From Chitinophagaceae bacterium (GTDB taxonomy: Bacteria; Bacteroidota; Bacteroidia; Chitinophagales; Chitinophagaceae): a stretch of 64,000 nucleotides of DNA. Below, one piece after another: positions 5,143-38,000 of the stretch. Position 1 is the first letter of the stretch. Every line of letters begins with the position of its first letter. The stretch spans positions 32,931-96,930 of the forward strand of contig JAVBJN010000016.1 in assembly GCA_031546985.1 (NCBI GenBank). The letters are read 5' to 3'. Position numbers and translations under genes: made by a program. Under the pieces are notes generated by a model that searched no databases, was not told the origin of the DNA, and worked only from the letters and a program-made list of their open reading frames with translations.

Positions 5143-5557
5143 CATAAAGAATAAAGAGCTAAGTACAATTGTATGCGAAGCATTTTTAAGTCTAAATTAT
5201 CCTTTTGATATTTCGAAAGCTTCAATGTGGTCATTAGAAGATCCCTACATACATCCACCCTTTTTTAGATTTAAGATAGGGGGAGATAAACCAGATTTGG
5301 TTTTTGAGAAACTCAAAAATATCATCACAAATTTTAATGGTGGATTAGTATGGGGCCTTTATAAGAATGAATATACTTGCCTTTTATTACCTGAGATTTT
5401 CTCTATTCATATTGATAGTAATCTTTATGATAAGAAATTCATGATACAACATTATGGAGGTGAGAGATACAAGGATTTAGTTGATATGGCTATCACTGAT
5501 ACTATTGCCTTGGCGACCCTAATCAGAAAGGGAGAATTTCTTGATTCGGATTCGTAG
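5135..5557 (+). CDS. putative cognate immunity protein for Rhs toxin tip 1
   Basis: ATG overlaps the Rhs stop (ATGAATAA). Small (140 aa), AT-rich, no signal peptide, in the classic position immediately 3' of an Rhs C-terminal tip. Confidence 0.5.
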   Translation: MNNIKNKELSTIVCEAFLSLNYPFDISKASMWSLEDPYIHPPFFRFKIGGDKPDLVFEKLKNIITNFNGGLVWGLYKNEYTCLLLPEIFSIHIDSNLYDKKFMIQHYGGERYKDLVDMAITDTIALATLIRKGEFLDSDS

Positions 5558-5578
5558 TTTCAACAGACACTTTTTATT

Positions 5579-5613
5579 CCCGGAAGGGTAGCCGTTAAAG
5601 CTACCTTTCCGGG
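5579..5613. other. 14-bp stem hairpin (cccggaagggtagc/gctacctttccggg); possible terminator or IS-remnant end
   Basis: Inverted repeat with 7-nt loop between the immunity gene and the transposase remnant. No clean U-tract on either strand. Confidence 0.25.
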
Positions 5614-5688
5614 ATTTAACCATAAACTGAATTTGTAGACTTCCCCGAAAATATTATTTCTTTTAGGTATAAATCACTAAGATCCTGT

Positions 5689-5910
5689 TTAAAATTTATT
5701 GATTAGAAGTTTTATGGCAGATAATTTGACGATTTCTTCAGCAGCAGATTCCATCAGGAGTTCATAATTTCTACAGAGTCTCCGATCATTATCAAACCAG
5801 GAGAATGTTCTTTCAATAACCCATCTTTGGGGTATTGGTAGGAACCCATTTTCCTGTTTACCTGTCTTTAAAACAACCTTAATCACATAACCCAACTTCT
5901 TCTTCAACAA
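5689..5910 (-). mobile_element. IS5-family (DDE_Tnp_1) transposase C-terminal remnant (~70 aa only)
   Basis: RWVIERTFSWFDNDRRLCRNYE matches the conserved C-terminal motif of IS5/IS4-superfamily transposases. The upstream ~230 aa are absent, replaced by the orphan rhs repeat that starts at 5900. Confidence 0.6.
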
Positions 5911-8361: not shown

Positions 8362-9272
8362 CTAAATTACACATAGTTGGTTGTTTATTGCTCTCCGGGG
8401 CGTAGTGGAGCGAAGGCGTAGCCGAAGCGGAACGGAGCGGAGCCCCGGAAAGCAGCTTTTTTCTTTATACATTTTAGGCGATAGCCCCCCTAATGCATCA
8501 TGTGGCCTATGGTGATTATAGTCGTGCACAAAGGCATCGGTCACTTCCCTTACTTCATCCAGATTGTCAAATAGGTACTGATCCAGTACACTTTCCCGGT
8601 AGGTTTTATTGAACCGTTCTATATATTCATTCTGCATGGGCTTGCCTGGCTGTATGTACTTAAATTCTATTTCATTGGCTTCGCTCCACAACTGCGCCAG
8701 CCTGGCTACAAACTCCGGCCCGTTATACATCCGTATCCGTTGTGGTTTGCCATAACGGGAGATCAGGTGTTTGAGCACCCAAATCACCCGGTTGCTTTTA
8801 AGGGAATAATCTGTTTCAATAAATAATACTTCACGGTTATAATCATCTATTACATTAAATGTTCTGAACTTGCTGCCGTTACTCAATGCATCGCTCATAA
8901 AATCTATGCTCCAGGTTTGTGTAAACCTGTCAGGTATAACCAATGGCTCTTTTACTCTGGCCGGCAGCCGCTTTTTTACCTTACGGCGCAAGGGAAGCTT
9001 CATTTGCTTGTATACACGGTATAGTCGCTTATGGTTAACATGTTCTCCGGCATTACGTAAACGATAATAACACTTCCAAAAGCCTTCCGTAGGATTTACC
9101 TGTGAATGTCTTTCCAGGTTGCTTATAAGGCTGCTGTCATCCTTTACGGATCGGTAATGAAGACTACTTCGGCTTAACCTTAATAGGCGACATGCCTTGC
9201 CTATGTCTTTGGGCCGCTCTTCTTTTAACTGGCAAACGATGGAGCGCTTGCTGCAAGGCTTTAAAGCTTTTT
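8362..9272 (-). CDS. IS3 family transposase OrfB (integrase core), expressed by -1 frameshift from OrfA
   Basis: Frame is open upstream of the annotated Met through the orfA overlap (…[36 protein letters not shown]…). WSIDFMSD … [13 protein letters not shown] is the rve DDE core. Confidence 0.8.
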
Positions 9273-19007: not shown

Positions 19008-19364
19008 TTGATACTGATGGAAAATGCCAACAAAAACATAGATGCTTTTAGTGATGCGGCTTTGTTGGATAAAATAGGCACATTTATCCGTACTATCCGG
19101 TTACAGCAGAATAAAACCCAACAAGATATTGCCGATGCAGCAGGCGTTAACCGCTCTACGCTGGTCAATATTGAGAATGGCGGTGGCGGCACTATGCTCT
19201 CACTGGTACAGGTGCTGCGCGCGCTCAACCAGTTGCATGTGCTGGAGGTGTTTACCAGCACTGCACCAATAAGTCCGCTGGAACTGGCTAAGGCAGCACA
19301 AAAACAAAGACTGCGTGCCCGGGGCAACCGGCCTTCTGATACCCAACCCGAATCTGACTGGTAA
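19008..19364 (+). CDS. hipB: XRE-family HTH antitoxin (HipB-like)
   Basis: TQQDIADAAGVNRSTLVNIENG is an HTH_XRE motif. Stop overlaps the hipA start (TAATGA). Confidence 0.7.
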   Translation: MILMENANKNIDAFSDAALLDKIGTFIRTIRLQQNKTQQDIADAAGVNRSTLVNIENGGGGTMLSLVQVLRALNQLHVLEVFTSTAPISPLELAKAAQKQRLRARGNRPSDTQPESDW

Positions 19365-20659
19365 TGATTACAACCGCATTCATTCACATCTGGAATAAAA
19401 CAGTAGGCGCCATAGCCTGGGACGAAAACACCGGGCTGGGCTCTTTTGAATATGAACCTGCTTTCCTGGAACATAACCTGGACCTGGCGCCGCTCAAAAT
19501 GCCCATCGCCAACGCGCGTGGCAGGGTCTTCTCGTTTCCCGAATTGCGCGATACAGCTACGTTTAAAGGGCTACCTGGGCTGGTGGCCGATGTGCTGCCC
19601 GACCGGTACGGCAATGCGTTGATCAATACCTGGCTGGCCCGCCATGGTCGCGCGCAAAACAGTATGAACCCAGTAGAGATGCTGTGTTTTATAGGCAAAC
19701 GGGGCATGGGCGCGCTGGAGTTTGACCCGGTACAACCCAAGGGCGCCAATACGGCCACACCCATTGAGATCAGCAGCCTGATAGAAGTGGCCGAAAAAAT
19801 ACTGAATGGCCGGGCTGGTTTTGAAACCGACTTGTCTACCAACGAAGAAAAAGCCCTGCTCGATATTCTTAAAATAGGCACCTCTGCCGGAGGGGCAAGG
19901 GCCAAAGCCGTTATTGCCTACAACCCGGCAACCGGAGCGGTAAGAAGCGGACAGGCCGCCGCGCCCGAAGGCTTTAGCCACTGGCTTATTAAGTTTGATG
20001 GCGTAACCGATGCGCAGTTTGGTGCTGCCAGCGGCTACGGAAGGGTAGAAATGGCTTACCACCTGATGGCCCGTGAAGCTGGCATCGATATGATGGAATG
20101 CCGCCTGCTGGAAGAGCATGGCCGGGCACATTTTATGACCCGCCGGTTTGATAGGCCGGGCAATAAAAGCAAGTTGCATGTGCAGAGTTTTTGCGCTATG
20201 CAGCATTACGATTTTGGGCAGGTAACATATTACAGCTACGAGCAGTTGTTCGAAACCATGCGTATGCTGCGGCTGCCTTACCCGCAGGCAGAGCAATTGT
20301 ACCGCAGAATGGTGTTTAATGTGCTGGCCCGCAACTGCGACGACCATACCAAGAACTTCGCCTTTATTATGGATGATGGCGGACAATGGCGCCTGGCTCC
20401 GGCTTTTGATGTGTGCCATGCCTACCGGCCCGATAGTCCGTGGGTAAGCCAGCAATCGTTAAGTGTAAACGGAAAACGAACCGGTATTACCCGCGCCGAT
20501 CTTGAAACAGTAGCGAAGCAAATGAATGTAAAGAAAGCGGGCATCATCATAACCGAGATTAGCGGCATTGTAGCCCGCTGGCCCAAATTTGCAGAGCAAA
20601 CCCATACCGATCCTGCACTGAGAGATGCCATAACGGCAACGCTGCTCAACCTGCCATAG
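19364..20659 (+). CDS. hipA: HipA-family serine/threonine kinase toxin
   Basis: N-terminal HipA_N signature IWNKTVGAIAWDE. GTSAGGARAKA. Catalytic region NCDDHTKNFAF. Confidence 0.85.
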   Translation: MITTAFIHIWNKTVGAIAWDENTGLGSFEYEPAFLEHNLDLAPLKMPIANARGRVFSFPELRDTATFKGLPGLVADVLPDRYGNALINTWLARHGRAQNSMNPVEMLCFIGKRGMGALEFDPVQPKGANTATPIEISSLIEVAEKILNGRAGFETDLSTNEEKALLDILKIGTSAGGARAKAVIAYNPATGAVRSGQAAAPEGFSHWLIKFDGVTDAQFGAASGYGRVEMAYHLMAREAGIDMMECRLLEEHGRAHFMTRRFDRPGNKSKLHVQSFCAMQHYDFGQVTYYSYEQLFETMRMLRLPYPQAEQLYRRMVFNVLARNCDDHTKNFAFIMDDGGQWRLAPAFDVCHAYRPDSPWVSQQSLSVNGKRTGITRADLETVAKQMNVKKAGIIITEISGIVARWPKFAEQTHTDPALRDAITATLLNLP

Positions 20660-20702: not shown

Positions 20703-20730
20703 ATAAAAAAGCGGCCTACTGGCCGCCTTT
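20703..20730. terminator. bidirectional terminator (hipA / helicase)
   Basis: aaaaaGCGGCCtactGGCCGCcttt. Confidence 0.5.
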
Positions 20731-22020
20731 ATTAGCATTATGATTGGGTTTGGGCCCGTTGTTGTTTCGATTGTTGCCCGATGAGGGTTTGCGGGGACCG
20801 CCTTTGCCCTTAAAATTACGGTTGCCTCCACCTCCGTGGCCACCACCGCTACCCGGTTTGCGCAGGTGTGGTGTGTATTCCGGCACAGGACCAAAAGATT
20901 CCGGCAAAACCACTTTGGTTACCGCATGGCCCAGCAGCTCTTCGATGCGGGCAAATTTATTTTGCTCTTTTTCGCCGATAATGGTCCAGGCTACACCTTC
21001 GCTGGCAGCACGCGCAGTACGGCCAATGCGGTGTACATAGTCTTCGCCATCGCCGGGCACGTCATAGTTTACTACCAGGTCTATATCTTCAATATCAATA
21101 CCACGGCTCAATACGTCGGTGGCTACTAATATTTTCAGTTTCTTGTTGCGGAAGTCGAGCAATACCTGCTCGCGTTGTTGCTGGTCCAGATCGGAGTGAA
21201 TTTCTTCTACCGATAGTTTGGCTCTTTTAAGCTCCTGGGTCAGTCTTTTTACTTCCTGTTTGCGGCTGCAGAAAACAATTACGCTTTGCAGGTTTTTCTG
21301 TTGCAGCAGGTGTTTTACCAGCGGCAGTTTTTGCGCTTCGTGCACCACAAATGCTTCCTGCACAATTTTTTCGGGCGGTTTAGACACCGCAATGTTTACC
21401 TGAACCGGGTTGTGCAGCAGTTTGCGCGCCAGCTCGTTGATGCGTGGCGGGTAAGTAGCCGAAAACAGCAGGTTCTGGCGCTTGGCAGGCAGTTTTTCAA
21501 TGATTTTAAGGATATCGTCCTTAAAGCCCATATCCAGCATACGGTCGGCCTCATCCAGCACCAGGTATTTCAACCCATCCAGTTTTACATACCCCATGTT
21601 GAGGTGTGCAATCATACGGCCGGGTGTACAAATCACCACATCCGCACCCTGGCTCAGCGCTTTCTTTTCGGCGGCAAACAGGCTGCCATCGCCACCACCG
21701 TAAACGGCAATGGAACTGATGGAGGTGAAGTAAGAGATGCCTTCCAGCGTTTGCGCAATCTGCACGGCCAGTTCCCTGGTAGGTACAATAATAAGCGCGT
21801 TAATCTGGTGGTGATCGTGAGGCTCGGTAATCAGTTTGTTCAGCAGTGGCAGCAGGAAAGCGGCCGTTTTGCCCGTACCCGTCTGGGCCGAAGCTATAAT
21901 GTCTCTTCCGTCGAGAATCGAGGGAATAACTTGTTCCTGTATAGGGGTGGCGTTGCGGTAGCCCATGGCATCAATACCATCGAGCAAAGCGTCCTCAAAG
22001 CCAAAATCGTAGAAGTGCAC
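20716..22020 (-). CDS. DEAD-box ATP-dependent RNA helicase with Gly/Arg/Asn-rich C-terminal tail
   Basis: Q motif ATPIQ. Motif I AQTGTGKT. Motif II DEAD. Motif III SAT. Motif VI HRIGRTAR. Confidence 0.9.
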   Translation of the reverse strand: MHFYDFGFEDALLDGIDAMGYRNATPIQEQVIPSILDGRDIIASAQTGTGKTAAFLLPLLNKLITEPHDHHQINALIIVPTRELAVQIAQTLEGISYFTSISSIAVYGGGDGSLFAAEKKALSQGADVVICTPGRMIAHLNMGYVKLDGLKYLVLDEADRMLDMGFKDDILKIIEKLPAKRQNLLFSATYPPRINELARKLLHNPVQVNIAVSKPPEKIVQEAFVVHEAQKLPLVKHLLQQKNLQSVIVFCSRKQEVKRLTQELKRAKLSVEEIHSDLDQQQREQVLLDFRNKKLKILVATDVLSRGIDIEDIDLVVNYDVPGDGEDYVHRIGRTARAASEGVAWTIIGEKEQNKFARIEELLGHAVTKVVLPESFGPVPEYTPHLRKPGSGGGHGGGGNRNFKGKGGPRKPSSGNNRNNNGPKPNHNANKGGQ

Positions 22021-22246: not shown

Positions 22247-25200
22247 TTGCAGCACATCCGATACAATTATAAATACATGTCGGGCATACCCTATACAGAT
22301 ACCGCCGGCAGGTTGCAGGAAGACCGTAAATTCCTGCTGGAGCTGAGCGGCCTAAACCCATTATTAAACTACCGTACCCCTAAAGCAAAAGGTCTCGAAA
22401 CCGTTTTGCCGGATATTCCAACCTTGCTGCGGCAAATGCTGGAAGGCCAGCCGGTGCGTTTTATTACCAGTGCCGAAGAAAATGCCGCGGCCAAAAACAG
22501 CCGTGTGGTGGTACCGGATACCGATCTGAAACAGTTGAGCCTCCGGTTGCAGAAAACAATGAAAGAGGCCGAGAGTCATATTGAGGAGCAGGGCGTAAAC
22601 GTATTGTTCCTGGCGCTGGGCATGCTGGAATGGAAAGAGCAGGACGCCGCCGAAAAAAACTGGCGCTCGCCGCTGCTGTTGTTGCCGGTAGAGCTAAGCC
22701 GCTCCCGCAAATTCGATGCGGAGGGCAACGAAACATTTGAGCTTTCGTTTAACGAAGAAGATATTGAGCCCAACTATTCGCTCATTGCAGCATTGAAAGA
22801 CCGCTACGGACTGGATTTGCCACCTATGCCCGATTTTGAGGCCAGCGAAACGCTGTTGTCGGTGCAGCAGCAATGGCAGGTTTGGATGAACGAAACAGGC
22901 CTCATGGTGGGCAATCGCCCGGGTTGGAGCGTGCAGCGCAATGTAGTGGCATTGGGTTTCTTTGCGTTTTCCAAATATTGGATGTACCGCGATCTGGCTC
23001 CCGAAAAATGGTTTACCACGCAGCATCCCGAAGGGCCTGCTTTGCTTACGCATATCCTTACCAAAGGTTTTGATGAAGGACCTTCTCCGGTGGCGGGAGA
23101 TTTTCACTTTGATGCGCAAACCGATATGGAGCAGCCCGCCACCATTCTCGATTTGGACAGCAGCCAGGCCCGTGTGGTGCTGGAAGCCCGCTCTGGTCGC
23201 AACCTGGTGGTGCAGGGCCCGCCCGGTACCGGTAAGTCGCAGACGATTGCCAACCTGATAGCCGATGCGGTGTACAATGGCAAGAAAATATTGTTCGTGG
23301 CCGAAAAAATGGCCGCGCTGGAAGTGGTAAAGAACAGGCTCACCGCCGCCGGTTTGGGGCATGTATGCCTGGAGCTGCATGGCGCTAAGGCGAGAAAGAG
23401 CCAGTTTGTGCAGGAGTTGAAACAAACCATGGAGCAGCCGGTACAAGCCCGCTTATCCGAGCCGATGGATCTTGCCCGCCTGCGCGATGCCCGTAGTGTG
23501 CTGCGCAAATGGAGCGATGCCATGCATTTGCCACTGGCCAGCGGATACACGCCTTATGAACTGATGGGTTTGCTGCAATGGGTACAGGAGCGGTTAAACG
23601 GTGTAGCACTGCCCCTGCCAGGCGTTGCAGAGGCAGGGTTGCAACAATCATTTACCAGCTATCTTGGCAACCTTACCAAAACACAGGTAGGCACTCATTT
23701 GCAACCTGGAGAGGAGGCATTGGCCGTTCAGTTGCTGGAACAATTATCTGGCGATGTGGGCCAGCCAGACCAGCACCCGTTGCGTGGTGTAGCGCTGGAG
23801 CAGGCACCCCCGCCATCGCGCATCGATGCTTTGCAAAAAGAACTGGATGCCGTGCTGCAAAAACTATTGGCATTGCAAAAGACCCTGGCAGAACAGGCAT
23901 CGGCTATTGCGCAATGGCCCGTAAATACGATACAGGAAACCGAAAGGTTGCTCGATAAATTATTGCTGGCAGTAGCATTGCCCGACCCCTGGTTTGCTAC
24001 GGCATTAAAAGAAGCGTGGACTGGCCAGGAAGCGGTGCTGAAGCAATGGATACAACAAGGCAAAAACACCGCTTCTGTTAAGGAGGCGGCCTTGCAGCAG
24101 GTGAAAGAACCTGCACTGGATGCAGATCTCGCTACTGTTCGCGAAACATTATATGCCAAGTCCGACAATATCTGGAACTGCTGGTTCAATGGCGCCTACA
24201 AGCAGGCACGCCGTACCATGCAAAGCTGGATGGTCGAAGAGGAGGTAAAAGATATTAACCTGCTGCGGCAGGCTGCCGATGCGGTGCTGGAATACCAGTC
24301 GGCGCTTCACCAATTGGAGAAGGGATGGCCCGTGGTGCAACCTTTCTTTGGTACGTTTGGCCAGTTGGAGCAGAGCAATTTTACGCTGCTGGAGCAAGGG
24401 CTTCAATGGTGTATAACCGTGCAGCAGAAACAACAGCAAGGTTTGCTGCCCATCGATTTTGGGACACAATTGGCCCAGCTGGCTGGCAAAACCCCGCTGC
24501 TTGATACAATAAGGCAGGAGGTGCAGGCCGCTTACGACCAGGCATGGCAAGCCCTGCAAGAAATGCAAACGGCGCTGGCCGTTCAGCAATCGCGGCAGGA
24601 ATCTTTCCGGGTACTTACATTTGACCAATTGCAACAACAACTATTGCAGATCAAAACCAGTTTGCCCGGCATCGCTACCTGGGTGCAGTGGTTCAGGCTA
24701 AGTGAGCAGGCCAGAAAAGCGGGCAAAGATCTGCTGGTACATTATGCTACTACCTGGCCTGCGGCAGGCACACACCTGCTCGATTATTACCGCCTCAAAG
24801 TGTGGGAAACCTTATTGCAGCAAGCCATTTCCGAAAGGCCATTGCTACAGCAGGAGCACGGCAAAAGCCTGGACCAGTGGCGGCAGACCTTTATCCAGCT
24901 CGATCAGCAACTTAAACAACATTACCGGGTAGAGATCATGAACCGCCATGCCGCTTCTACCGCGCAATTGGGTAGCAATGGCCAGGCGGGTTTTCTTCGC
25001 AGCAATGTGCAGAAAAAAAGAAACATTCCCCCCGTACGTACGTTTTTGCAGCAAAGTTTTGAAGCTATCGCATTGCTCAAGCCGGTATTTATGATGAGCC
25101 CCTTATCGGTGGCTGCTTACCTGGAAGACAAACCCGGTATGTTTGACCTGGTTATTTTCGATGAGGCCAGCCAGGTAGAGCCGGTAGATGCGTATGGTTC

Positions 25201-27025
25201 CATCATCAGAGGCAAACAAGTATTGGTAGTGGGCGATACCCGCCAGATGCCACCTACCCATTTCTTTAAAAAGATGCTGGCAGAGGATATGCCGCAGGCA
25301 GAAAGCGCAGGCGATAACCTCTCTGGCAGTGTAGATAGTATTATGGAAGTAATGCTGGGCCGCAATGCGCCTTCCAGAACATTACAATGGCATTACCGCA
25401 GCCAGCACGATTCATTGATCAAAGTATCGAACCAGCATTTTTATGAAGGCCAATTGGTGGTATTCCCCAGCGCCCGCCCGGCGGGACCATTACTGGGCCT
25501 TACGCTGCACCAGCTCGATTACCATACCCATCCTTACGAAGGGCAGGGTGTAAACCGCTCAGAGGCTAAAGTGGTAGCCCTGGAAGTGCTGCGTTTTGCC
25601 AAAGAACATCCCGGTAAAACATTGGGCGTGGTGGCTTTTAACATCCGCCAGCGCGATGCCATAGACCAGGAGCTGACGGTTTTGATGCGTGATAATCCGG
25701 AACTGGCCGCGTTTATGAATAAGACCGGTAAGACAGAACCTTTCTTCGTTAAAAACCTGGAGAACGTGCAGGGCGATGAGCGCGATGTTATTTTCATTTC
25801 TGTAGGATATGGCAAAACAGAACATGGTACGCTGGTGCATAATTTTGGTGCCCTCAACCAGGATGGAGGCGAGCGCCGGTTGAATGTATTAATTACCCGT
25901 GCCCGCCGCGCCAATTATATCTTCAGCAATTTTGGGTTTACAGATCTCGATTTGTCGCGTACCCGTGCCAAAGCCATGATGGTACTGCGCGATTACCTGC
26001 AATATGCCGGTGCAGCCGAAGCAGCAACACCTTTGCAGTCAGATCAAGAAGCAGAAGGCTTGCTGGAAACAGAAGTGGCCAATGCCTTGCGCAGTAAAGG
26101 TTATGAAGTGCTGATCAAAGTGGGTAGCTCAGGCTATAAGCTGGACCTGGCGGTACTGCATCCGCAACAGCCAGGAACCATGGTGCTGGGTATCGAATGC
26201 GATGGCATGGCTTACCATAAATCCCGCAGCTCCAGAGACCGCGACAGGTTACGCCAGGCCGTGCTCGAAGGTTTGGGCTGGAATCTCTACCGTTTATGGA
26301 GCACAGACTGGTTTTACAATAAGGAGCAGGCACTGAACAAGATTGTAGCGACAATAGAATCGATTATAGATAAGTCTGCAAACGAAGTAACATCTGGCAA
26401 AGAGCCAGACGCGCCACAGCCGGTGCTGCCCCAGGCGATTGCCGAACCGCGCATTATTGTAGAAACCGCAAAGAGTGTTACGATAGATGATTTTCCGGCA
26501 TGTAAGATAGCAGATACCAGCAAATGGACGAAGGTGCAGGAGTTTAAACAATTGCCGGATGCGATGCTGGAGCGGTATATGCTACAGATTGTAACGGCAG
26601 AAGCTCCGGTGGCGGTAGAACAGGTATGCAGGAGAATTGCCGATGCCATGAACCTGATTCTGGGTAGCCGGGTACGGTCGCGGATCGAAGATCATGTGCA
26701 GCAGGCGGTTCAGCGAGGACAACTAGCGCAGCAAGATGGTTTCATTATAATAACCGGAAGTGCCGCAACTCCGCCACGTGACTTTAGCGAGCATCCGTAT
26801 AAACACATCGATATGGTAGCGCCGCAGGAGCAGCAGGAAGCTCTGTTGTTGCTGGTAAAAAGCGCTTTGAGCATTACCGCAGCGGAATTGCTTCCGGAGG
26901 CCGCCGCAAGGCTGGGGTTCCGGTATACGGCTCCGGTGCAGCAGGCGTTGGCCAGGGCGCTCGAAAGTTTATTACAATCGCAGCGCATAGCGCAGCAAGG
27001 AATGTATCTTGTGCCAGTAAAATAA
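22247..27025 (+). CDS. giant Upf1/Dna2-family SF1 helicase with DUF4011-like N-terminus, DUF559/Vsr-like PD-(D/E)xK endonuclease domain and DUF3320-like C-terminus (Hhe-like)
   Basis: LLELSGLNPLLNYRTPKA is DUF4011-like. Motif I GPPGTGKSQT. Motif II DLVIFDEASQ. Motif VI-like VLITRARR. IECDGMAYHKS…GWNLYRLWSTDW is DUF559/Vsr-like. Confidence 0.8.
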   Translation: MQHIRYNYKYMSGIPYTDTAGRLQEDRKFLLELSGLNPLLNYRTPKAKGLETVLPDIPTLLRQMLEGQPVRFITSAEENAAAKNSRVVVPDTDLKQLSLRLQKTMKEAESHIEEQGVNVLFLALGMLEWKEQDAAEKNWRSPLLLLPVELSRSRKFDAEGNETFELSFNEEDIEPNYSLIAALKDRYGLDLPPMPDFEASETLLSVQQQWQVWMNETGLMVGNRPGWSVQRNVVALGFFAFSKYWMYRDLAPEKWFTTQHPEGPALLTHILTKGFDEGPSPVAGDFHFDAQTDMEQPATILDLDSSQARVVLEARSGRNLVVQGPPGTGKSQTIANLIADAVYNGKKILFVAEKMAALEVVKNRLTAAGLGHVCLELHGAKARKSQFVQELKQTMEQPVQARLSEPMDLARLRDARSVLRKWSDAMHLPLASGYTPYELMGLLQWVQERLNGVALPLPGVAEAGLQQSFTSYLGNLTKTQVGTHLQPGEEALAVQLLEQLSGDVGQPDQHPLRGVALEQAPPPSRIDALQKELDAVLQKLLALQKTLAEQASAIAQWPVNTIQETERLLDKLLLAVALPDPWFATALKEAWTGQEAVLKQWIQQGKNTASVKEAALQQVKEPALDADLATVRETLYAKSDNIWNCWFNGAYKQARRTMQSWMVEEEVKDINLLRQAADAVLEYQSALHQLEKGWPVVQPFFGTFGQLEQSNFTLLEQGLQWCITVQQKQQQGLLPIDFGTQLAQLAGKTPLLDTIRQEVQAAYDQAWQALQEMQTALAVQQSRQESFRVLTFDQLQQQLLQIKTSLPGIATWVQWFRLSEQARKAGKDLLVHYATTWPAAGTHLLDYYRLKVWETLLQQAISERPLLQQEHGKSLDQWRQTFIQLDQQLKQHYRVEIMNRHAASTAQLGSNGQAGFLRSNVQKKRNIPPVRTFLQQSFEAIALLKPVFMMSPLSVAAYLEDKPGMFDLVIFDEASQVEPVDAYGSIIRGKQVLVVGDTRQMPPTHFFKKMLAEDMPQAESAGDNLSGSVDSIMEVMLGRNAPSRTLQWHYRSQHDSLIKVSNQHFYEGQLVVFPSARPAGPLLGLTLHQLDYHTHPYEGQGVNRSEAKVVALEVLRFAKEHPGKTLGVVAFNIRQRDAIDQELTVLMRDNPELAAFMNKTGKTEPFFVKNLENVQGDERDVIFISVGYGKTEHGTLVHNFGALNQDGGERRLNVLITRARRANYIFSNFGFTDLDLSRTRAKAMMVLRDYLQYAGAAEAATPLQSDQEAEGLLETEVANALRSKGYEVLIKVGSSGYKLDLAVLHPQQPGTMVLGIECDGMAYHKSRSSRDRDRLRQAVLEGLGWNLYRLWSTDWFYNKEQALNKIVATIESIIDKSANEVTSGKEPDAPQPVLPQAIAEPRIIVETAKSVTIDDFPACKIADTSKWTKVQEFKQLPDAMLERYMLQIVTAEAPVAVEQVCRRIADAMNLILGSRVRSRIEDHVQQAVQRGQLAQQDGFIIITGSAATPPRDFSEHPYKHIDMVAPQEQQEALLLLVKSALSITAAELLPEAAARLGFRYTAPVQQALARALESLLQSQRIAQQGMYLVPVK

Positions 27026-27074
27026 TCAGAACGATGCCAGGTTTTCCGGCATCCTTTTTTAATGAACGGTAAGC

Positions 27075-30000
27075 ATGGACCCATTAACCGCATCGTTGTT
27101 GTATAGTGAGATAGAAAATTACCTGGAAGATCCATCCTCCGACGCCAGGCGATTTATAAAAAGGCTGATGGAAAAGTTGTTCCGGCAACTGGTTTCAGAT
27201 TCCGGAAAGAGTTTTACTTCCCTTACCGCCAATATGGCTTTTGTATTGCCCAATACCTTGCTGCAACCCGATTTGCACCATGCATTAATGGCATTGCGCA
27301 AACTGGTGGTGATGCACAAGGGCCGTTCATGGACTGATGGCCGCACCGTTTGGGGCATTAAAGTACTTGCAGAAACTATTGCGGTAACAACCGGAGCGCC
27401 CATGCCGGAAACACTCCTGCTTAAGCTGGATGGTATTGCATTGCAGGTATCTGAAACAGCTGATATTGCTGAAGAACCAAATGTGCTGGCAGAAATGCGT
27501 TGCTGTATACTCGAAAAAGGACCATTGCAACAAAATGCGGAGGCGCATAAGTTTTGTGTGCTCAAAGTAGATACACCAGAGCTGGGCATCGTGTTTATGC
27601 AACTTTGGGAAAACACATCTGGCCACCTGGCTATGCTATACCCATTGCTGGCGCCCTACCAGCATTTGCAGGTATTGCATTGCAGCAAAACGAATGAACC
27701 GCATACCTGGACCACCGTTGCCGATTCTCAGTTGGTGCTGGAACCGGATGTGCTCATGGATATTAGTGATCTGGCAGAATGCTGCCAGTTTAAAGGCGAT
27801 CTGCCGCTGCTGTACCTCGTAAAAAAATTGATGCCACAGCAATACAATGATGCGGCATTAAAGGGAAACCTGGTGAATGCCTTGCTGGATGCGGTACTGC
27901 GGGATGTGGAAACACCATTTAAATCCTGCTTTCGCGAGGTGGTGGCAGACAATGTATTGCAAGCATCGGCCTATGGCAAAGAAAAACTGAACGGCATTTA
28001 CCGCGATATTGCCGCCACACACTGGCCCAATCTGCACCGCGCAGCTTCTTCCTTGCAAAACAAACCGGTTCGTATAGAGCCTACTTTTTTCTCGGCCCGT
28101 TATGGCTTGCAAGGACGTTTGGATGTGCTTACCGAAGATCTGCAAAACCCCGATCATAAAGAAATTCTTGAACTCAAGAGTGGCCGCGCGCCCGATTACC
28201 AAACCTGGCGCAACAATGAAATGCAGGTAGTGGGCTATAACCTGCTGCTTAAATCATCGTTTGGCGAGCAGCGTACCGGCGGTTCTGCTATTTTATATTC
28301 TGCGGCTTCGTATGAGCCAATGCGCACGGTGCGCAACAGTGTAAAGCTGGAAAGTGAATTGCTTTCGGTGCGCAACCAGGTGGTAGGTTACCTGATGCAG
28401 ATTGCTTCGGGCGATTATACCATTTTGGGGCAAATTACGCCCGCTATGGCAGAGGGCCTGCCCGGCTTTTTAAGCACCGGGTTCTCGAAATATGCCGAAG
28501 GCTGGCAACAGGCATCGCCATTAGCCAAAGCGTATTACCAGCAGTTCCTGTCGTTTATTATCAGAGAATGGTTGCAGGCCAAATGCGGCCTGTACTCTGG
28601 TATGGAACGGGAGGAAGATGCAGATGGTTTTGCTGCATTGTGGTTGCAGGAAGAGCAGGATAAACGAGATGCCTTTAGCCTCATTGCCGGTTTGCAATTT
28701 ATGGCACTGAACGAAGAAACCGGTGTACTAACCTTTTCGATCACCGAAAAACAGAGCCATAATTTCCGCAGCGGCGATACGGCTATTTTATATGCCCGCA
28801 GGGATGGTTCGTTAAACCCGTTGCAGCAACAGGTACTCAAAGGGCGTATTGATGTGCTGACGGATAACCGTGTTCTTTTCTCGCTCAATAACCGGCAGTT
28901 GTCGGCGTCTTTTTTCTCGGCAGCGGAAAGCTGGGTGCTGGAGCACGATATGTACGAAAGCAATTACTGGGTATCGGCTTCGGCATTGTGGTATGTGCTG
29001 GACCCTGCTTATGCATCACGCCTGGCTTGTATTTTAGGCCAGCAGGAACCCGCAGTGCAGGAGCTTGAAGTGCAAAAACCAGAAGGCTTTAACGACAATC
29101 AGTACAGCTTATTGCGGTACGCGCTCGAAGCCAAAGATTATTACCTCATACAAGGGCCTCCCGGCACGGGCAAGACCTCTACCGTGCTTACGGCATTGGT
29201 ACGCGAATTGCTGCAACGAAAACAACAGGTGGTGGTGGTAGCATTTACCAACCGTGCGGTTGAAGAGATATGCAGGAAACTGAAAGATACGGGTGTGGAT
29301 TTTTTGCGGTTGGGCAGCAGGCGTTCGGAGTCGGAGCAGCAGCTTCGCAAATACTGTATGGACGGGCAAATTGAGGAAGCCAGAAACTTCATTACAGGTC
29401 AGCAGGTTTTTGTGGCTACAGTAGCTACAATGGCCGCCAGACTCGATTTGCTGGAAATGCTGAAGATTAAACCCGATACACTGATTGTGGATGAGGCATC
29501 ACAATTGACCGAACCGCAATTGCTGGGGCTGTTGATGCATTTTAAAAAATTTGTACTCATTGGCGATCAAAACCAATTACCTCCGGTGGTGGCGCAGCAC
29601 GAACAATACTGTGCGGTTCCCGAAGGCGTATTGACGCAAGCGGGGTTAAGGGATATGCGGGTATCGGTATTTGAACGGTTGATGCAGCAATGCCGTGAAA
29701 AGGGCTGGTACCATGCTTTTGGTATGCTTACTACCCACTTCAGGATGCACGATACCATTGCAGATCTTATTAATCCTTACTATGCCGGGCGGTTGAAATC
29801 GGGCCGGGCGGTGCAGCAGGAATTATTTGCGCCGGAACCTGTTTCTGATAATGTGTGGACAAATATGCTGGCCAGGGGGCGTAAAGTGTTTATGCCTTCT
29901 CCCAAAGAATCGGTTTCCAAGCTTAACAAAGAGGAAGCCCGTAGGGTAGTATCGTTACTGAAACATTTGAAAGATAGTATGGGCGAGCAGTTTAGTCCAG

Positions 30001-30368
30001 ATGCGGTAGGCGTGGTTACACCCTGGCGCACGCAGATCAGTTACATTCGTGAGCTGATTGGCGATGATGCCGTTTTGCAGGCAGTGAATATTGATACGGT
30101 AGAGCGTTTCCAGGGATCGGAGAACGATATTATTATTGTTTCGCTGGCAGTGAACCACCCGGCACAGTTGCGGCAATTGCAGAGCGACGGGCAGTTTGAT
30201 GATGGCAAGCAATTGATTGCGGTAGACCGTAAATTACTGGTTACACTAAGCCGCGCAAGGCAGCAGGTGATATTGATGGGCTATGAACCCGTACTGAGGG
30301 TTTCTGTGCATTACAGCCGTGTGCTGGACCAGATGAATTATACAGAGCAGATATTTACAGAACAATAA
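27075..30368 (+). CDS. nuclease-helicase: N-terminal RecB/Cas4-like PD-(D/E)xK nuclease plus C-terminal Upf1/Dna2-family SF1 helicase (Nhi/Dna2-like)
   Basis: RLDVL … ILELKSGR … QVVGY form the D-ExK-QxxxY nuclease motifs. Motif I GPPGTGKTST. Motif II LIVDEASQ. LLVTLSRARQQ. Confidence 0.8.
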   Translation: MDPLTASLLYSEIENYLEDPSSDARRFIKRLMEKLFRQLVSDSGKSFTSLTANMAFVLPNTLLQPDLHHALMALRKLVVMHKGRSWTDGRTVWGIKVLAETIAVTTGAPMPETLLLKLDGIALQVSETADIAEEPNVLAEMRCCILEKGPLQQNAEAHKFCVLKVDTPELGIVFMQLWENTSGHLAMLYPLLAPYQHLQVLHCSKTNEPHTWTTVADSQLVLEPDVLMDISDLAECCQFKGDLPLLYLVKKLMPQQYNDAALKGNLVNALLDAVLRDVETPFKSCFREVVADNVLQASAYGKEKLNGIYRDIAATHWPNLHRAASSLQNKPVRIEPTFFSARYGLQGRLDVLTEDLQNPDHKEILELKSGRAPDYQTWRNNEMQVVGYNLLLKSSFGEQRTGGSAILYSAASYEPMRTVRNSVKLESELLSVRNQVVGYLMQIASGDYTILGQITPAMAEGLPGFLSTGFSKYAEGWQQASPLAKAYYQQFLSFIIREWLQAKCGLYSGMEREEDADGFAALWLQEEQDKRDAFSLIAGLQFMALNEETGVLTFSITEKQSHNFRSGDTAILYARRDGSLNPLQQQVLKGRIDVLTDNRVLFSLNNRQLSASFFSAAESWVLEHDMYESNYWVSASALWYVLDPAYASRLACILGQQEPAVQELEVQKPEGFNDNQYSLLRYALEAKDYYLIQGPPGTGKTSTVLTALVRELLQRKQQVVVVAFTNRAVEEICRKLKDTGVDFLRLGSRRSESEQQLRKYCMDGQIEEARNFITGQQVFVATVATMAARLDLLEMLKIKPDTLIVDEASQLTEPQLLGLLMHFKKFVLIGDQNQLPPVVAQHEQYCAVPEGVLTQAGLRDMRVSVFERLMQQCREKGWYHAFGMLTTHFRMHDTIADLINPYYAGRLKSGRAVQQELFAPEPVSDNVWTNMLARGRKVFMPSPKESVSKLNKEEARRVVSLLKHLKDSMGEQFSPDAVGVVTPWRTQISYIRELIGDDAVLQAVNIDTVERFQGSENDIIIVSLAVNHPAQLRQLQSDGQFDDGKQLIAVDRKLLVTLSRARQQVILMGYEPVLRVSVHYSRVLDQMNYTEQIFTEQ

Positions 30369-30881
30369 ATGAGATTGAAGATGAAACAAGGATGGCATAG
30401 GTTGGGTTTGATGATGGCATTGCTGGTACTTACCCCGGTAGTATGGGCAGCTCAGAAAAAGGTAACCGGTAAGGTAGTAAAGGTGGTAGATGGCGACACG
30501 TTTGATGTGCTGGAAGGTAAAACTACTTACCGCATTCGTATGTATGGTATAGACGCGCCAGAGAAGAAACAGGACTTTGGTAACCGGAGCAAACAGGCGC
30601 TGGGCGATGCTTGTATGCAACAACCCATTACGGTAATTCTTAAAAAGAAAGACCGGTACCAGCGCTGGGTGGGAGATGCTTATGATGTAAATGGCAGGCA
30701 CATTAACCTGTTGATGGTAAAGCAAGGGTATGCCTGGCATTACGCAAAATTTGCGAAGAAGAGCCAGGACCTGGCGGAGGCGCAGGAATATGCCCAAACG
30801 CATAAGCTGGGCTTATGGCAACAACCGCACCCGGTAGCGCCCTGGGATTGGCGTAAGAAAAAGGCACAGGCACCAGAGTAG
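30369..30881 (+). CDS. secreted thermonuclease (staphylococcal nuclease / SNase-like)
   Basis: Signal peptide. KVVDGDTF…RIRMYGIDAPE…GRHINLLMVKQGYAW is the SNase fold signature. ATG immediately follows the upstream stop. Confidence 0.8.
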   Translation: MRLKMKQGWHRLGLMMALLVLTPVVWAAQKKVTGKVVKVVDGDTFDVLEGKTTYRIRMYGIDAPEKKQDFGNRSKQALGDACMQQPITVILKKKDRYQRWVGDAYDVNGRHINLLMVKQGYAWHYAKFAKKSQDLAEAQEYAQTHKLGLWQQPHPVAPWDWRKKKAQAPE

Positions 30882-30974: not shown

Positions 30975-31008
30975 TAAAAAAGCAGCCCCCAACAGGCTGC
31001 TTTTTGCT
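30975..31008. terminator. bidirectional terminator
   Basis: aaaaaGCAGCCcccaacaGGCTGCttttt. Confidence 0.6.
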
Positions 31009-35041: not shown

Positions 35042-38000
35042 GTGAATAAAATTGATAACCAATCAATCCAATCAGATATGAACTCAACCAGTAACATTTA
35101 TGGCTACGTGCGTTCTACGCAAACGAAGCTCCCTGTAGAAGGGATGAAAGTATTGCTTTTTTTTGGCGGCGACTATCTCGTAGCGCAAACGCAATCAAAA
35201 GCAGAGGGATTCTTTCAATTGATAGTGAGTGGTGCTACACTCGACACTCTTTTTCCAAGCGGCAATGTAATGCTGACTTTTGAAGTCAGAGATGCTGCGA
35301 ACCATCTGCTGCTCAGTCAATCCAGTTGCCCTATATGGACCCCCGAACTGAAATCGGATATAAACCTTTGGGTAAATGCCGACCTGGTCGCGAAAACCAT
35401 TGCAGTACAAGGCCGGGTGGTTAATGCCAATGGCTTGCCAGCGGTGGGCACACCTGTACGCATCCGTGAAAAGGCATTTCGCCTGGATAACCTGTTGACC
35501 GAAGGAATTACCAATGCCGAAGGGTATTACAATTTATCGGTAAATACGCGCAACATACTTACCGCTACTGCAGACAAACCAGCTACGGGTGTAGTGGAGG
35601 TTATGTCAAAAGCCGGAGTTGCGGGCAAAGTGATCGCTATCTCTGACGATTTAGCACTGAGCGGCGATACACTAGCAGTAAACTTTAACCTGCTTGGTAG
35701 CGTTTCAAGGGCAACCGAAGAGTACGCCGATCTGAAAAATACCATCATTGCCAAAGTGGGCGACATTGACCTGTCTGGTGTGGGAGTAGAAGATACTTCA
35801 GAAGTACAGCAACTCTCTGCTGCTACCGGCTTTGCCTCAAATGAAGTGCAGTCTATAGTTACTGCCCATAAGCTTAGTACCGATCTTCAACTCGATACGG
35901 ATGCCGTGTATGCACTGGTGCGTAACAGCGATCCTTCTGGCAGTGAGTTGATTAACCTGGACAGCAATAAGGTGGAGGCACTGGTTACGAATGCCATTGA
36001 AACAGGCATTGTAAGGCCAGATATGGCTCCGGATATTCCGGAGGTGCAGGGAAAAGTTGCAGATTACCAGATCAAGGAAATTCTGAAGAACAAACTCGGG
36101 AACGAGAAGTTTACATTGAAAGACGGACTGGATGTAATTTTCAACAATAGCACCTTCGCAGAAGGTTTCATTGCCAAAATCCAGGATTTTGATGGGCAGG
36201 ATATCAATGGTTTCTGGGCTAAATATGCACTGGACAATGGTGCCGCCAATAAGAGTAAAGCACAGGCCACTCTTCAGTTGATGGCGGTAACCGGTAACCA
36301 ACCCGTGCTTTCTAAAAGGATCTACGATAACACTTCCGGCAGCATTGCTAAAATGGCGAAGTGGGACGATACCCAATGGGTTGCGCATATTAATGCGGCG
36401 GCTGTTGGTGCAACAGTGCCTATTGTACCGGTTGCGATCGGCGAAGATACTACCCTGGGTCGTGCTAAATATGCCAGCAAACTAAAGGCTATTGCCCAGG
36501 AACTGTATCCATTAACAACCCTCGCAGGCAAATTGGAAACCTCCGGTTATACAGGGCTGGTTTCGGACAATGCTGTGGCGCAGGATATGATTAAATTCAT
36601 TAACCAGAATCCACAGTTCGATTTCCGTACACAAAGTGTACATGATATTAAAACCGGAAGCGTTGATCTGACTGGCATTGCTGATGTAGCAAAACTGAAA
36701 GGAGAGATCGCTCCGTTTCAGCGTCTTACCCGTATTGCTGGTGCAAAACCAGATGCTATTGAACAATTGAAACGTGCTGGTATTACAACTGCGCAACAAA
36801 TCGCTGCAATGCCTTCCAGCAAGTTTGTGGCCGATTATAGTGCTGCCCTGGGTGGTATGCAGGAAGCCATGAATGCCTTTGGCCGTGCCGTACAGGTTGC
36901 ACAGTTATCCGCACAAGCTGTGGTCGACATTCAAACCGCATCCGGCGCGGTAATCGACAGTACCCTGGTATTGCCCGATATTTATGCGCAGCCAGAGATC
37001 GGTGCAGATCCTGATCTGGCTACTTTATTTGGCAGCCTGGACCAGTGCGGTTGCGAGTATTGCATGTCGGTGTACAGTCCGTCTGCTTACTTCGTAGATG
37101 TGATGAATTTTATCAAAACCCATTCTACAACCAACTCAGCGTTCGATGAATTGATGTGGCGCAGGCCCGATCTGAAAGCGATTGACCTCACTTGTAAAAA
37201 TGCCAATACACCACTGCCTTACATTGACCTGGTAAATGAACTGCTGGAAAGAGAAATCCTGAAAACTGCCGCTATTCCGGGGCTTGTTATTCCTGTCTCT
37301 TTCCAAACCAGCGGTACTGCTGCCGATCTTGCAGCGCACCCCGAACATGTGTCCAGAAAAGCAGGAACGACAGATTATGAAGATTATAAAGAAACCAACA
37401 GGGTATACGATACGGTACTGAAATCTGCAGTATACCCGTTCAACCTGCCGTTTAACCGTGCCATGGAAGAAGCGCGTGTGTACCTGAAACACCTGGGCTT
37501 TACCCGTTACGAACTGGTGAACCTGTTCCGCCCCATTACCGCGTTAGACAATATGGCTGGTAGCAATACCAGTAACGAAATTACGGCTTACAACCTGGCC
37601 AGCGAATCGCTGGGCATCAGCAAAGAAGCTGCAGATGTCATTATTGGTAAGGGCAGTGCCGCTGCCTGGAACTATTTTGGTTTCGCCAATGCTGCTGTTA
37701 CAGGCTATGTTAGTCCTTCTGATTCGGCTGTGTTACTGAATGGTCATTGGACAGAACTGCTTGCCGGTACCGCTAAAAAAGATGCGGCAGAGTATGGCGG
37801 TCTGGATGTGGTGCTGCAGCAAACAGGATTATCGTATAAAGAATTCCTGATGCTGCTGGATACCTACTCGCTTAACCCTGTTTACCAGGCCGATGACCGC
37901 CGTATCAAAATCGTTTCGCGCGATAATATGCCTGTAGATACCTGTGTGCTTAAGAACCTGAAGCTGGAAGCAACATTGCCGGCAGGTGTAACAGACATCA

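Follow-up and report, generated by a model that had tools for sequence, protein, structure and literature searches.

A PDC-S37-type helicase-nuclease gene next to a Dna2-like nuclease-helicase gene in a Chitinophagaceae genome: probable lineage-specific juxtaposition of separate units

We analyzed a stretch of 64,000 nucleotides (nt) from a Chitinophagaceae bacterium (contig JAVBJN010000016.1, positions 32,931 to 96,930; hereafter, the window), in which three consecutive genes encode two giant helicase-nucleases (genes 1 and 2) and an exported enzyme with the staphylococcal nuclease (SNase) fold (gene 3). An earlier, sequence-only reading of the window had proposed that these genes form a composite anti-phage defence island next to hipBA. 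Our analysis indicates that the locus is probably a lineage-specific juxtaposition of separate units and not one system, because the five nearest independent relatives of gene 1 are solitary, gene 2 occupies a fixed block of genes in Chitinophaga-type loci, and the whole trio has a single counterpart, in one close relative of the window. Gene 1 is a member of the PDC-S37 branch of the DUF4011/Hhe family, which has spread horizontally, and is a candidate for a mobile single-protein anti-phage helicase-nuclease. Gene 2 is a bacterial homologue of Dna2, a vertically inherited, lineage-core chromosomal gene.

Distribution and neighbourhoods of the three genes

All three open reading frames (ORFs) lie on the + strand where they had been reported, at 22247-27025, 27075-30368 and 30369-30881 (1592, 1097 and 170 amino acids (aa), respectively), separated by 49 nt (genes 1 and 2) and by 0-12 nt (genes 2 and 3). 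When the conservation of this arrangement was checked across genomes, the trio, together with the neighbouring hipBA, DEAD-box and Band-7 genes, recurred only in one soil metagenome contig (L001/L087). This contig comes from a close relative with synteny throughout the region, and its proteins are 75%, 79% and 62.5% identical to the products of genes 1, 2 and 3 of the window. The trio is thus lineage-specific, and elsewhere genes 1 and 2 largely occur independently in their respective neighbourhoods, an outcome that the sequence-only reading had itself named as speaking against a composite system.

The five nearest independent relatives of gene 1 (L082, L084, L086, L105 and L107; 37-43% identity) are all solitary genes without a conserved partner, which is the single-gene ('S' class) occurrence of PDC-S37. 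The relative in L082 (43% identity) stands at the end of a Thoeris-type island (244-5743) containing SIR2/STALD, two ThsB-TIR genes, MazG, HMUDK_hel, and Nmad2, and this context supports a defence association of the PDC-S37 branch. One of the nearest relatives is flanked by genes for a resistance-nodulation-division (RND) pump and for sugar-nucleotide metabolism, and one has neither a defence gene nor a Dna2-like gene among its neighbours. The relatives in L086 and L107 share one stable common site beside radA, between housekeeping genes.

The gene 1 family as a whole has more than 7000 matches and a patchy distribution among phyla. Identity to gene 1 is 75% in the one close relative, 43% at the next step, and about 35% beyond that, where the homologues span Proteobacteria, Firmicutes, Actinomycetota, and Bacteroidota. 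Members of the wider DUF4011/Hhe family occur on 491 plasmid records, including 211 conjugative ones; however, only seven plasmid matches cover at least 80% of gene 1, and most of the others are true Hhe proteins from Klebsiella plasmids. A compositional case for recent transfer of gene 1 was rejected, since its guanine-cytosine (GC) content is not distinctive (0.527 vs 0.49-0.51 in the neighbours).

For gene 2, we listed 31 loci from the genome collection with a near-full-length homologue, setting the close relative of the window apart. These loci come from Bacteroidota, Cloacimonadota, Ignavibacteria, Ktedonobacteria, and other groups. The first genome scan used the full gene 2 alignment, including generic helicase peptides, and two Chitinophaga genomes were among the matches listed; a second scan, of metagenome contigs with patterns from the alignment of the nuclease part only, yielded 15 further loci. 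None of the 31 listed loci has a gene-1-type neighbour, all tblastn matches of gene 1 in them falling within the gene 2 homologue itself, and no gene 1 homologue lies by gene 2 in the other Chitinophaga-type metagenome loci.

The 14 Chitinophaga-type loci all place gene 2 in one block with the order up615, up166, proC (-), an SNase gene (present or absent), gene 2, an HNH_3/NUMOD4 gene (-), and Dus (-). Since this housekeeping block is fixed, we regard gene 2 as vertically inherited, and the proposal that it is a defence-island gene is not supported. The gene was found in at least 19 named Chitinophaga entries, its synteny is also kept within Cloacimonadota, and only three plasmid records carry near-full-length copies. 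One relative of gene 2 adjoins recC, recD, xseA, and xseB.

Two neighbours of gene 2 can be mentioned in their own right. A homing-endonuclease-type protein of 189 aa (HNH_3/NUMOD4/HTH_7; L011 13279-13848, - strand) is encoded directly downstream of the Dna2-like gene, is 88-100% identical between loci, which is above the conservation of the Dna2-like gene itself, and recurs there in every Chitinophaga-type locus that reaches beyond gene 2 (e.g. L002, L088-L091, L093, L094). The gene for tRNA-dihydrouridine synthase (Dus) lies a few kb from the Dna2-like gene both in Chitinophaga (L002/L011, ~13.9-15.0 kb, - strand) and in Cloacimonadota (L015 4080-5042, L024 6300-7355, and L025 5006-5956, - strand), on opposite sides; this proximity in two phyla could be due to chance.

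Domain content of the gene products and surroundings of the locus

The coordinates of all features are collected in Table 1. The start codons of two genes were revised from database proteins. The gene 1 ORF of 1592 aa is real and opens at TTG, but a 100%-identical protein (P0121) begins at an internal ATG. Likewise, the ORF of gene 3 opens immediately after the stop codon of gene 2, as had been noticed, whereas its probable start, that of the identical protein P0241, is located 12 nt downstream.

Table 1. Features of the window and of selected homologous loci. Positions refer to the window unless a locus is named; residue numbers of gene 1 domains (such as DUF4011, 30-183) count from 22247.
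Feature	Position	Strand	Evidence and remarks
hipB	19008-19364	+	Pfam HTH_3
hipA	19364-20659	+	Pfam Couple_hipA, HipA_C (9e-52)
DEAD-box RNA helicase gene	20716-22020	-	Pfam DEAD, Helicase_C; between hipA and gene 1
Gene 1, PDC-S37-type helicase-nuclease, 1582 aa	22277-27025	+	PADLOC PDC-S37; ATG from P0121
Gene 1, DUF4011, N-terminal	22334-22795	+	Pfam PF13195, E 1e-29 to 7e-29, residues 30-183
Gene 1, superfamily 1 (SF1), Upf1-like helicase core	23153-25927	+	Pfam AAA_11 303-413, AAA_12 1031-1227
Gene 1, Vsr-fold endonuclease domain (MTES_1575/DUF559)	26066-26356	+	Pfam PF18741, 4.9e-33
Gene 1, DUF3320 (winged helix-turn-helix region), C-terminal extension	26552-26674	+	Pfam PF11784, 2e-5
Hairpin followed by U6 tract	27033-27061	+	Gap between genes 1 and 2; minimum free energy -11.9 kcal/mol, z -2.96
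Gene 2, bacterial Dna2-like nuclease-helicase, 1097 aa	27075-30368	+	AlphaFold/Foldseek, PDB profile
Gene 2, RecB/Cas4-type PD-(D/E)xK nuclease domain	27732-28409	+	D350, E366, K368, Q384, Y388
Gene 2, SF1B (Dna2/Upf1-type) helicase domains 1A, 2A	29082-30344	+	Pfam AAA_11, AAA_12, each ~5e-30
Gene 3, exported SNase-fold enzyme, 166 aa	30381-30881	+	Pfam SNase; ATG start from P0241
Gene 3, signal peptide	30381-30449	+	Hydrophobic N-terminus up to VWA|AQ
Gene 3, SNase domain	30531-30824	+	Pfam PF00565, 6e-23, 81.8 bits vs cut-off 21
Strong hairpin with T tracts, 11-bp stem	30977-31005		Minimum free energy -16.8 kcal/mol, z -4.66
SNase beside Dna2-like gene, L011	9304-9891		Also in L090, L095, L099, L100, L101
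SNase beside Dna2-like gene, L093	8732-9256
SNase beside Dna2-like gene, L015	12914-13378
PDC-S37-type gene, L097	2495-8572	-
Dna2-like gene, L097	9338-12670	+
PDC-S37-type gene, L102	3184-8991	-
Dna2-like gene, L102	10001-13336	+

The domains attributed to gene 1 from its letters (DUF4011, SF1 helicase, and a DUF559/Vsr-fold restriction endonuclease) were all recovered with Pfam, and the underlying motifs (LLELSGLNPLLNYR, GPPGTGKS, FDEASQ, LITRARR, IECDGMAYH...GWNLYRLW) are present in the translation. The protein matches the PADLOC model PDC-S37 nearly end to end (1405.7 bits, E = 0; residues 20-1586 against model positions 7-1543 of 1550). Its helicase core, with the Walker A motif GPPGTGKS and motif II FDEASQ (at ~25154-25171), is interrupted by an insertion of about 550 aa. 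The long C-terminal extension that had been noticed is indeed there, and it corresponds to the DUF3320 region, although the Pfam score lies slightly under the cut-off (24.9 vs 25 bits). MTES_1575 has been described as a Vsr-fold restriction endonuclease and the DUF3320 region as overlapping winged helix-turn-helix domains (Anantharaman et al., PMC3710099). In an alignment of gene 1 with 12 homologues, the helicase motifs GPPGTGKS, FDEASQ, QGDERD, and RRLNV..TRA are invariant, as are the CDG, RDR, and GW residues of the Vsr fold; therefore, the enzyme looks active.

In gene 2, the translation contains GRLDV...ELKSG...QVVGYNLL followed by GPPGTGKT, DEASQ, and TLSRAR, and the proposed combination of a nuclease with an Upf1-like helicase proved to be a Dna2 architecture according to both a PDB profile and Foldseek. 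Pfam listed only AAA_11 and AAA_12. The best PDB sequence match is mouse DNA2, with an E-value of 8e-29 for the helicase half (DNA2 residues 625-1037) and a weak, collinear match of the nuclease core (IEPTFFSARYGLQGRLDV...LELKSG...QVVGYNLL) to DNA2 residues 258-367. When a profile of 19 gene 2 sequences was used, the E-value for DNA2 reached 1.2e-58, the nuclease and helicase stretches were both significant, and DNA2 scored well above Upf1, Sen1, and Ighmbp2. The AlphaFold model built on the same alignment (predicted local distance difference test, pLDDT, 87.4; predicted template modelling score, pTM, 0.88) matched mouse DNA2 (5EAN) over the whole chain in Foldseek (E 6.5e-46, template modelling scores 0.63/0.66, 1104 columns), whereas other Upf1-like helicases matched it over the C-terminal half alone. 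The nuclease residues listed in Table 1 (motifs D, E-x-K, and Q-x3-Y) are invariant in the 19 sequences. The four cysteines of an iron-sulphur (Fe-S) cluster are not conserved in the family: C236 is the sole invariant cysteine of the nuclease region, and its other cysteines are all less than 50% conserved.

Gene 3 is an exported SNase, as had been supposed from its hydrophobic N-terminus and as the Pfam match to SNase agrees, and is predicted from its signal peptide to act outside the cytoplasm. Genes 2 and 3 are probably co-transcribed, and the hairpin at 30977-31005, between gene 3 and a convergent Band-7 gene (- strand), closes their unit. The hairpin after gene 1 is a possible terminator, and separate transcription of genes 1 and 2 is possible but unproven. 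We rejected this terminator as a firm sign of separate transcription because no hairpin is found in the corresponding gap of L001 (29 nt). A scan for sigma-70 promoters, with a model that is ill-suited to promoters of Bacteroidota, stayed at background (9 found vs 10.9 expected).

Genes for WYL/WCX-domain regulators were observed in a few of the homologous loci (L108 6568-7584, L109 6583-7599, and L104 11836-12837, all on the - strand). Such genes adjoin SNase homologues in Lacibacter-type genomes, and one such gene is located two genes from the Dna2-like homologue near recC, recD, xseA, and xseB. Such placement may hint at a common regulon that responds to DNA damage or single-stranded DNA.

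The hipBA pair is a genuine neighbour, 1.6 kb upstream of gene 1, but a gene on the opposite strand, encoding the DEAD-box RNA helicase, intervenes. The stop codon of hipB and the start codon of hipA overlap at base 19364, the pair has the make-up of a HipBA toxin-antitoxin system, and it is kept in L001 with 85% identity. The DEAD-box gene, whose PADLOC matches are generic superfamily 2 helicases only and which is 91% identical to its counterpart in L001, is of housekeeping type and outside the feature. No specific PADLOC match was obtained for 10 flanking proteins. Beyond gene 1 (a candidate) and hipBA, no neighbour fits a specific defence model, and the locus is not a cluster of several defence systems of the kind expected for a defence island.

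Farther away, a gene for a TcB/TcC-type Rhs protein of a Tc (ABC) insecticidal toxin is found at the left edge of the window (7-5142, + strand), and a TcA-type protein of 3846 aa is encoded about 30 kb from it (35042-46582, + strand). The stretch between the two Tc genes also carries an insertion sequence (IS) transposase gene (rve, 8362-9003) and genes for proteases sorted by the type IX secretion system (T9SS). The T9SS sorting domains and the names of homologues fit a Chitinophagaceae-like organism, the latter placing it near Chitinophaga.

Weighing of the alternative explanations

Under the juxtaposition reading, which is the best supported, gene 1 was most likely inserted in front of gene 2 in an ancestor of this genus-level lineage, in an accessory stretch that also carries the nearby hipBA. 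The product of gene 1 would act alone: with DUF4011 and the winged helix-turn-helix region it may load onto nucleic acid that is foreign or aberrant, translocate at the expense of ATP, and then cut DNA with the Vsr-fold domain, so that phage or other mobile DNA would be restricted. By analogy with DNA2 and with Bad from Geobacillus, the product of gene 2 may thread a free 5' single-stranded end through its RecB-type nuclease, move 5'->3' with its SF1B motor, and trim flaps or ends in repair or recombination. No cooperation between the three genes would be required.

Several observations weigh against this interpretation. Our literature searches turned up no experimental paper on PDC-S37, a candidate family only, and nothing usable on the NCBIfam families ProA and PLuB. 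A large DUF4011 gene of Pseudomonas aeruginosa belongs to the core of all isolates and merely flanks a defence hotspot (PMC10250203), and no physiological role is known for bacterial Dna2-like proteins (PMC7430649). The same-strand tandem with short gaps has persisted in L001 across 21-25% protein divergence. In a second, unrelated lineage (L097 and L102; 64.5% GC), a PDC-S37-type gene is separated by one small gene from a Dna2-like gene in divergent orientation. The PDC-S37-type protein of this lineage (1935-2025 aa, 1199 bits) has an extra N-terminal extension of about 450 aa, and its gene 2 is 38-40% identical to that of the window and 73% identical between both contigs. Such a neighbourhood is more than simple chance would predict. 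Finally, an exported SNase gene adjoins the Dna2-like gene in three different arrangements: it follows the Dna2-like gene in the window lineage, it lies upstream, with proC on its other side, in 8 of the 14 Chitinophaga-type loci (two or three species clusters), and it comes downstream, past a DUF3467 gene, in one Cloacimonadota metagenome-assembled genome (MAG); every adjoining homologue has a signal peptide. The SNase adjacency and the L097/L102 neighbourhood may reflect a functional link, the independent events being few.

These observations could be accommodated in a true composite defence system, in which genes 1 and 2 (possibly with gene 3) cooperate, one enzyme sensing or opening the invading DNA and the other degrading it. 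The tandem genes and their very short gaps, the lack of a terminator between genes 1 and 2 in L001 and the retention of the trio there, the independent neighbourhood in L097 and L102, and the closeness of hipBA would all fit. Nevertheless, we consider such a system unlikely. Genes 2 and 3 are missing beside every one of the five nearest gene 1 relatives, and on the gene 2 side a gene 1 homologue is equally absent from the listed and the other Chitinophaga-type loci described above. The orientation is tandem in the window lineage but divergent in L097/L102, gene 2 is inherited vertically in housekeeping contexts, and in the window the gap after gene 1 contains a hairpin and a U6 tract. Moreover, gene 3 is predicted to be exported and therefore could not meet the cytoplasmic enzymes encoded by genes 1 and 2. 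With similarly low probability, the Dna2-like nuclease-helicase of Bacteroidota and Cloacimonadota could be the hub of an undescribed DNA-processing or barrier module with SNase and PDC-S37-type proteins as recurrent partners. If so, the window trio would be one fully assembled version of it, and the WYL/WCX genes near SNase and Dna2-like homologues would point to a common regulon responsive to single-stranded DNA or DNA damage.

Gene 1 could also be a genome-maintenance helicase-nuclease without a role in immunity, the whole stretch then being devoted to housekeeping DNA/RNA metabolism. The P. aeruginosa gene, the stable radA site of two gene 1 relatives, and the unvalidated status of PDC-S37 are in line with this explanation, which is quite unlikely in view of the anti-phage naming of the closest curated families, ProA and Hhe, in NCBIfam, the frequency of Hhe copies on Klebsiella plasmids, the position of the 43%-identical relative directly beside a Thoeris island, and the patchiness of the family across phyla. 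A very unlikely explanation is that genes 2 and 3 constitute an Nhi-like module for defence or as a barrier to foreign DNA, where the SNase degrades incoming DNA outside the cytoplasm and the Dna2-like enzyme destroys single-stranded or replicating foreign DNA inside it. The fusion of a nuclease to an SF1 helicase does resemble the architecture of Nhi, Hna, and similar systems (established knowledge; PMC10732053), an SNase gene is repeatedly found beside gene 2 (before it in Chitinophaga, after it in the window lineage and the Cloacimonadota MAG), and gene 2 in Chitinophaga is flanked by a variable SNase slot and the HNH/NUMOD4 gene. However, gene 2 keeps a fixed chromosomal position and occurs in each of the sampled Chitinophaga-type loci, one relative is located among the repair genes recCD and xseAB, and the defence-model matches amount to generic helicase and Cas4-fold similarity. 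The SNase, in turn, is missing from its slot in 6 of the 14 Chitinophaga-type loci and from all other sampled phyla but one. A hidden Markov model (HMM) search of 104 loci revealed no further SNases, and neither of two SNase homologues viewed from their own side adjoins a Dna2-like gene.

The juxtaposition of separate units remains our preferred interpretation and carries a caution for the recognition of defence islands: giant helicase-nuclease genes in tandem can mimic a system, and it is their genomic context that reveals one of them as mobile and the other as a stable chromosomal gene. Should the SNase adjacency and the L097/L102 neighbourhood prove significant, a repair-type enzyme would be tied to the control of foreign DNA.

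Comparison with known families

Gene 1 shares with PDC-S37 proteins, which carry the NCBI name 'DUF3320 domain-containing protein', the order of all parts (DUF4011, split SF1 helicase, MTES_1575 Vsr-fold nuclease, and DUF3320 winged helix-turn-helix) and shows no structural difference from this computationally defined candidate family. Hhe (HheA, NF042953) and ProA (NF058533) likewise combine DUF4011, an Upf1-like SF1 helicase, and a Vsr-fold nuclease in one polypeptide, and gene 1 has the Hhe architecture by Pfam; its similarity to both families is strong in the helicase-nuclease half. The earlier description of gene 1 as Hhe-like is therefore apt inasmuch as it belongs to a candidate defence family related to Hhe, but it does not reach the family cut-offs. 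The score against Hhe is 853.5 bits (cut-off 2000), in two stretches of which the best covers residues 750-1380; that against ProA is 1191.3 bits (cut-off 1500), the match beginning at position 355 of the 1903 in the model, so that the N-terminal module of ProA (~354 positions) is absent from gene 1. Plasmid copies of Hhe align to about 58% of gene 1 and are devoid of its C-terminal region.

For gene 2, the sequence-only reading had suggested similarity to Nhi. Nhi (nuclease-helicase immunity, Staphylococcus) has the same general layout, a single protein that begins with a nuclease and ends with an SF1 helicase. The genomic behaviour of gene 2, however, is vertical and not of the variable, island-like kind that is typical of defence genes. 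No PADLOC model named Nhi was among the matches shown for the full protein or among those to its N-terminal 660 aa, residues 400-690, and residues 840-1097, the presence of an Nhi model in the library being unconfirmed. The matches obtained were to generic helicases (Mokosh MkoA/MkoC, DpdJ, GajB) and, weakly, to the Cas4 fold. Assignment of gene 2 to Mokosh or PLuB was also rejected, because the similarity is confined to the helicase half.

Gene 2 is thus a bacterial Dna2 homologue, and the suggested likeness to Nhi is not supported by these matches. The fold of mouse DNA2 (5EAN) is collinear with full-length gene 2, with RecB-family nuclease motifs followed by an SF1B helicase, at about 20% sequence identity. 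Bad from Geobacillus stearothermophilus, the one bacterial relative that has been characterized, is a monomeric 5'->3' translocase on single-stranded DNA and an endonuclease that contains an Fe-S cluster (PMC7430649). Gene 2 differs from these proteins in two respects: the four cysteines of the Fe-S cluster, by which the DNA2/AddB/Cas4/Bad class of nucleases is defined, are not conserved in it, and its family is lineage-core and not sporadic in Chitinophaga. The product of gene 3 has a complete SNase domain (PF00565) and a signal peptide, as do secreted thermonucleases, and it scores under the cut-offs of both the EcnA and NucI equivalogs of NCBIfam. All three genes are of known kinds: gene 1 belongs to the PDC-S37 candidate family, gene 2 to the bacterial DNA2-like proteins, and gene 3 to the SNase family. 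Lacking the Fe-S cysteines, the Dna2-like clade is a mild variant. This clade, well populated and core in Chitinophaga, offers an experimental handle on bacterial Dna2-like proteins.

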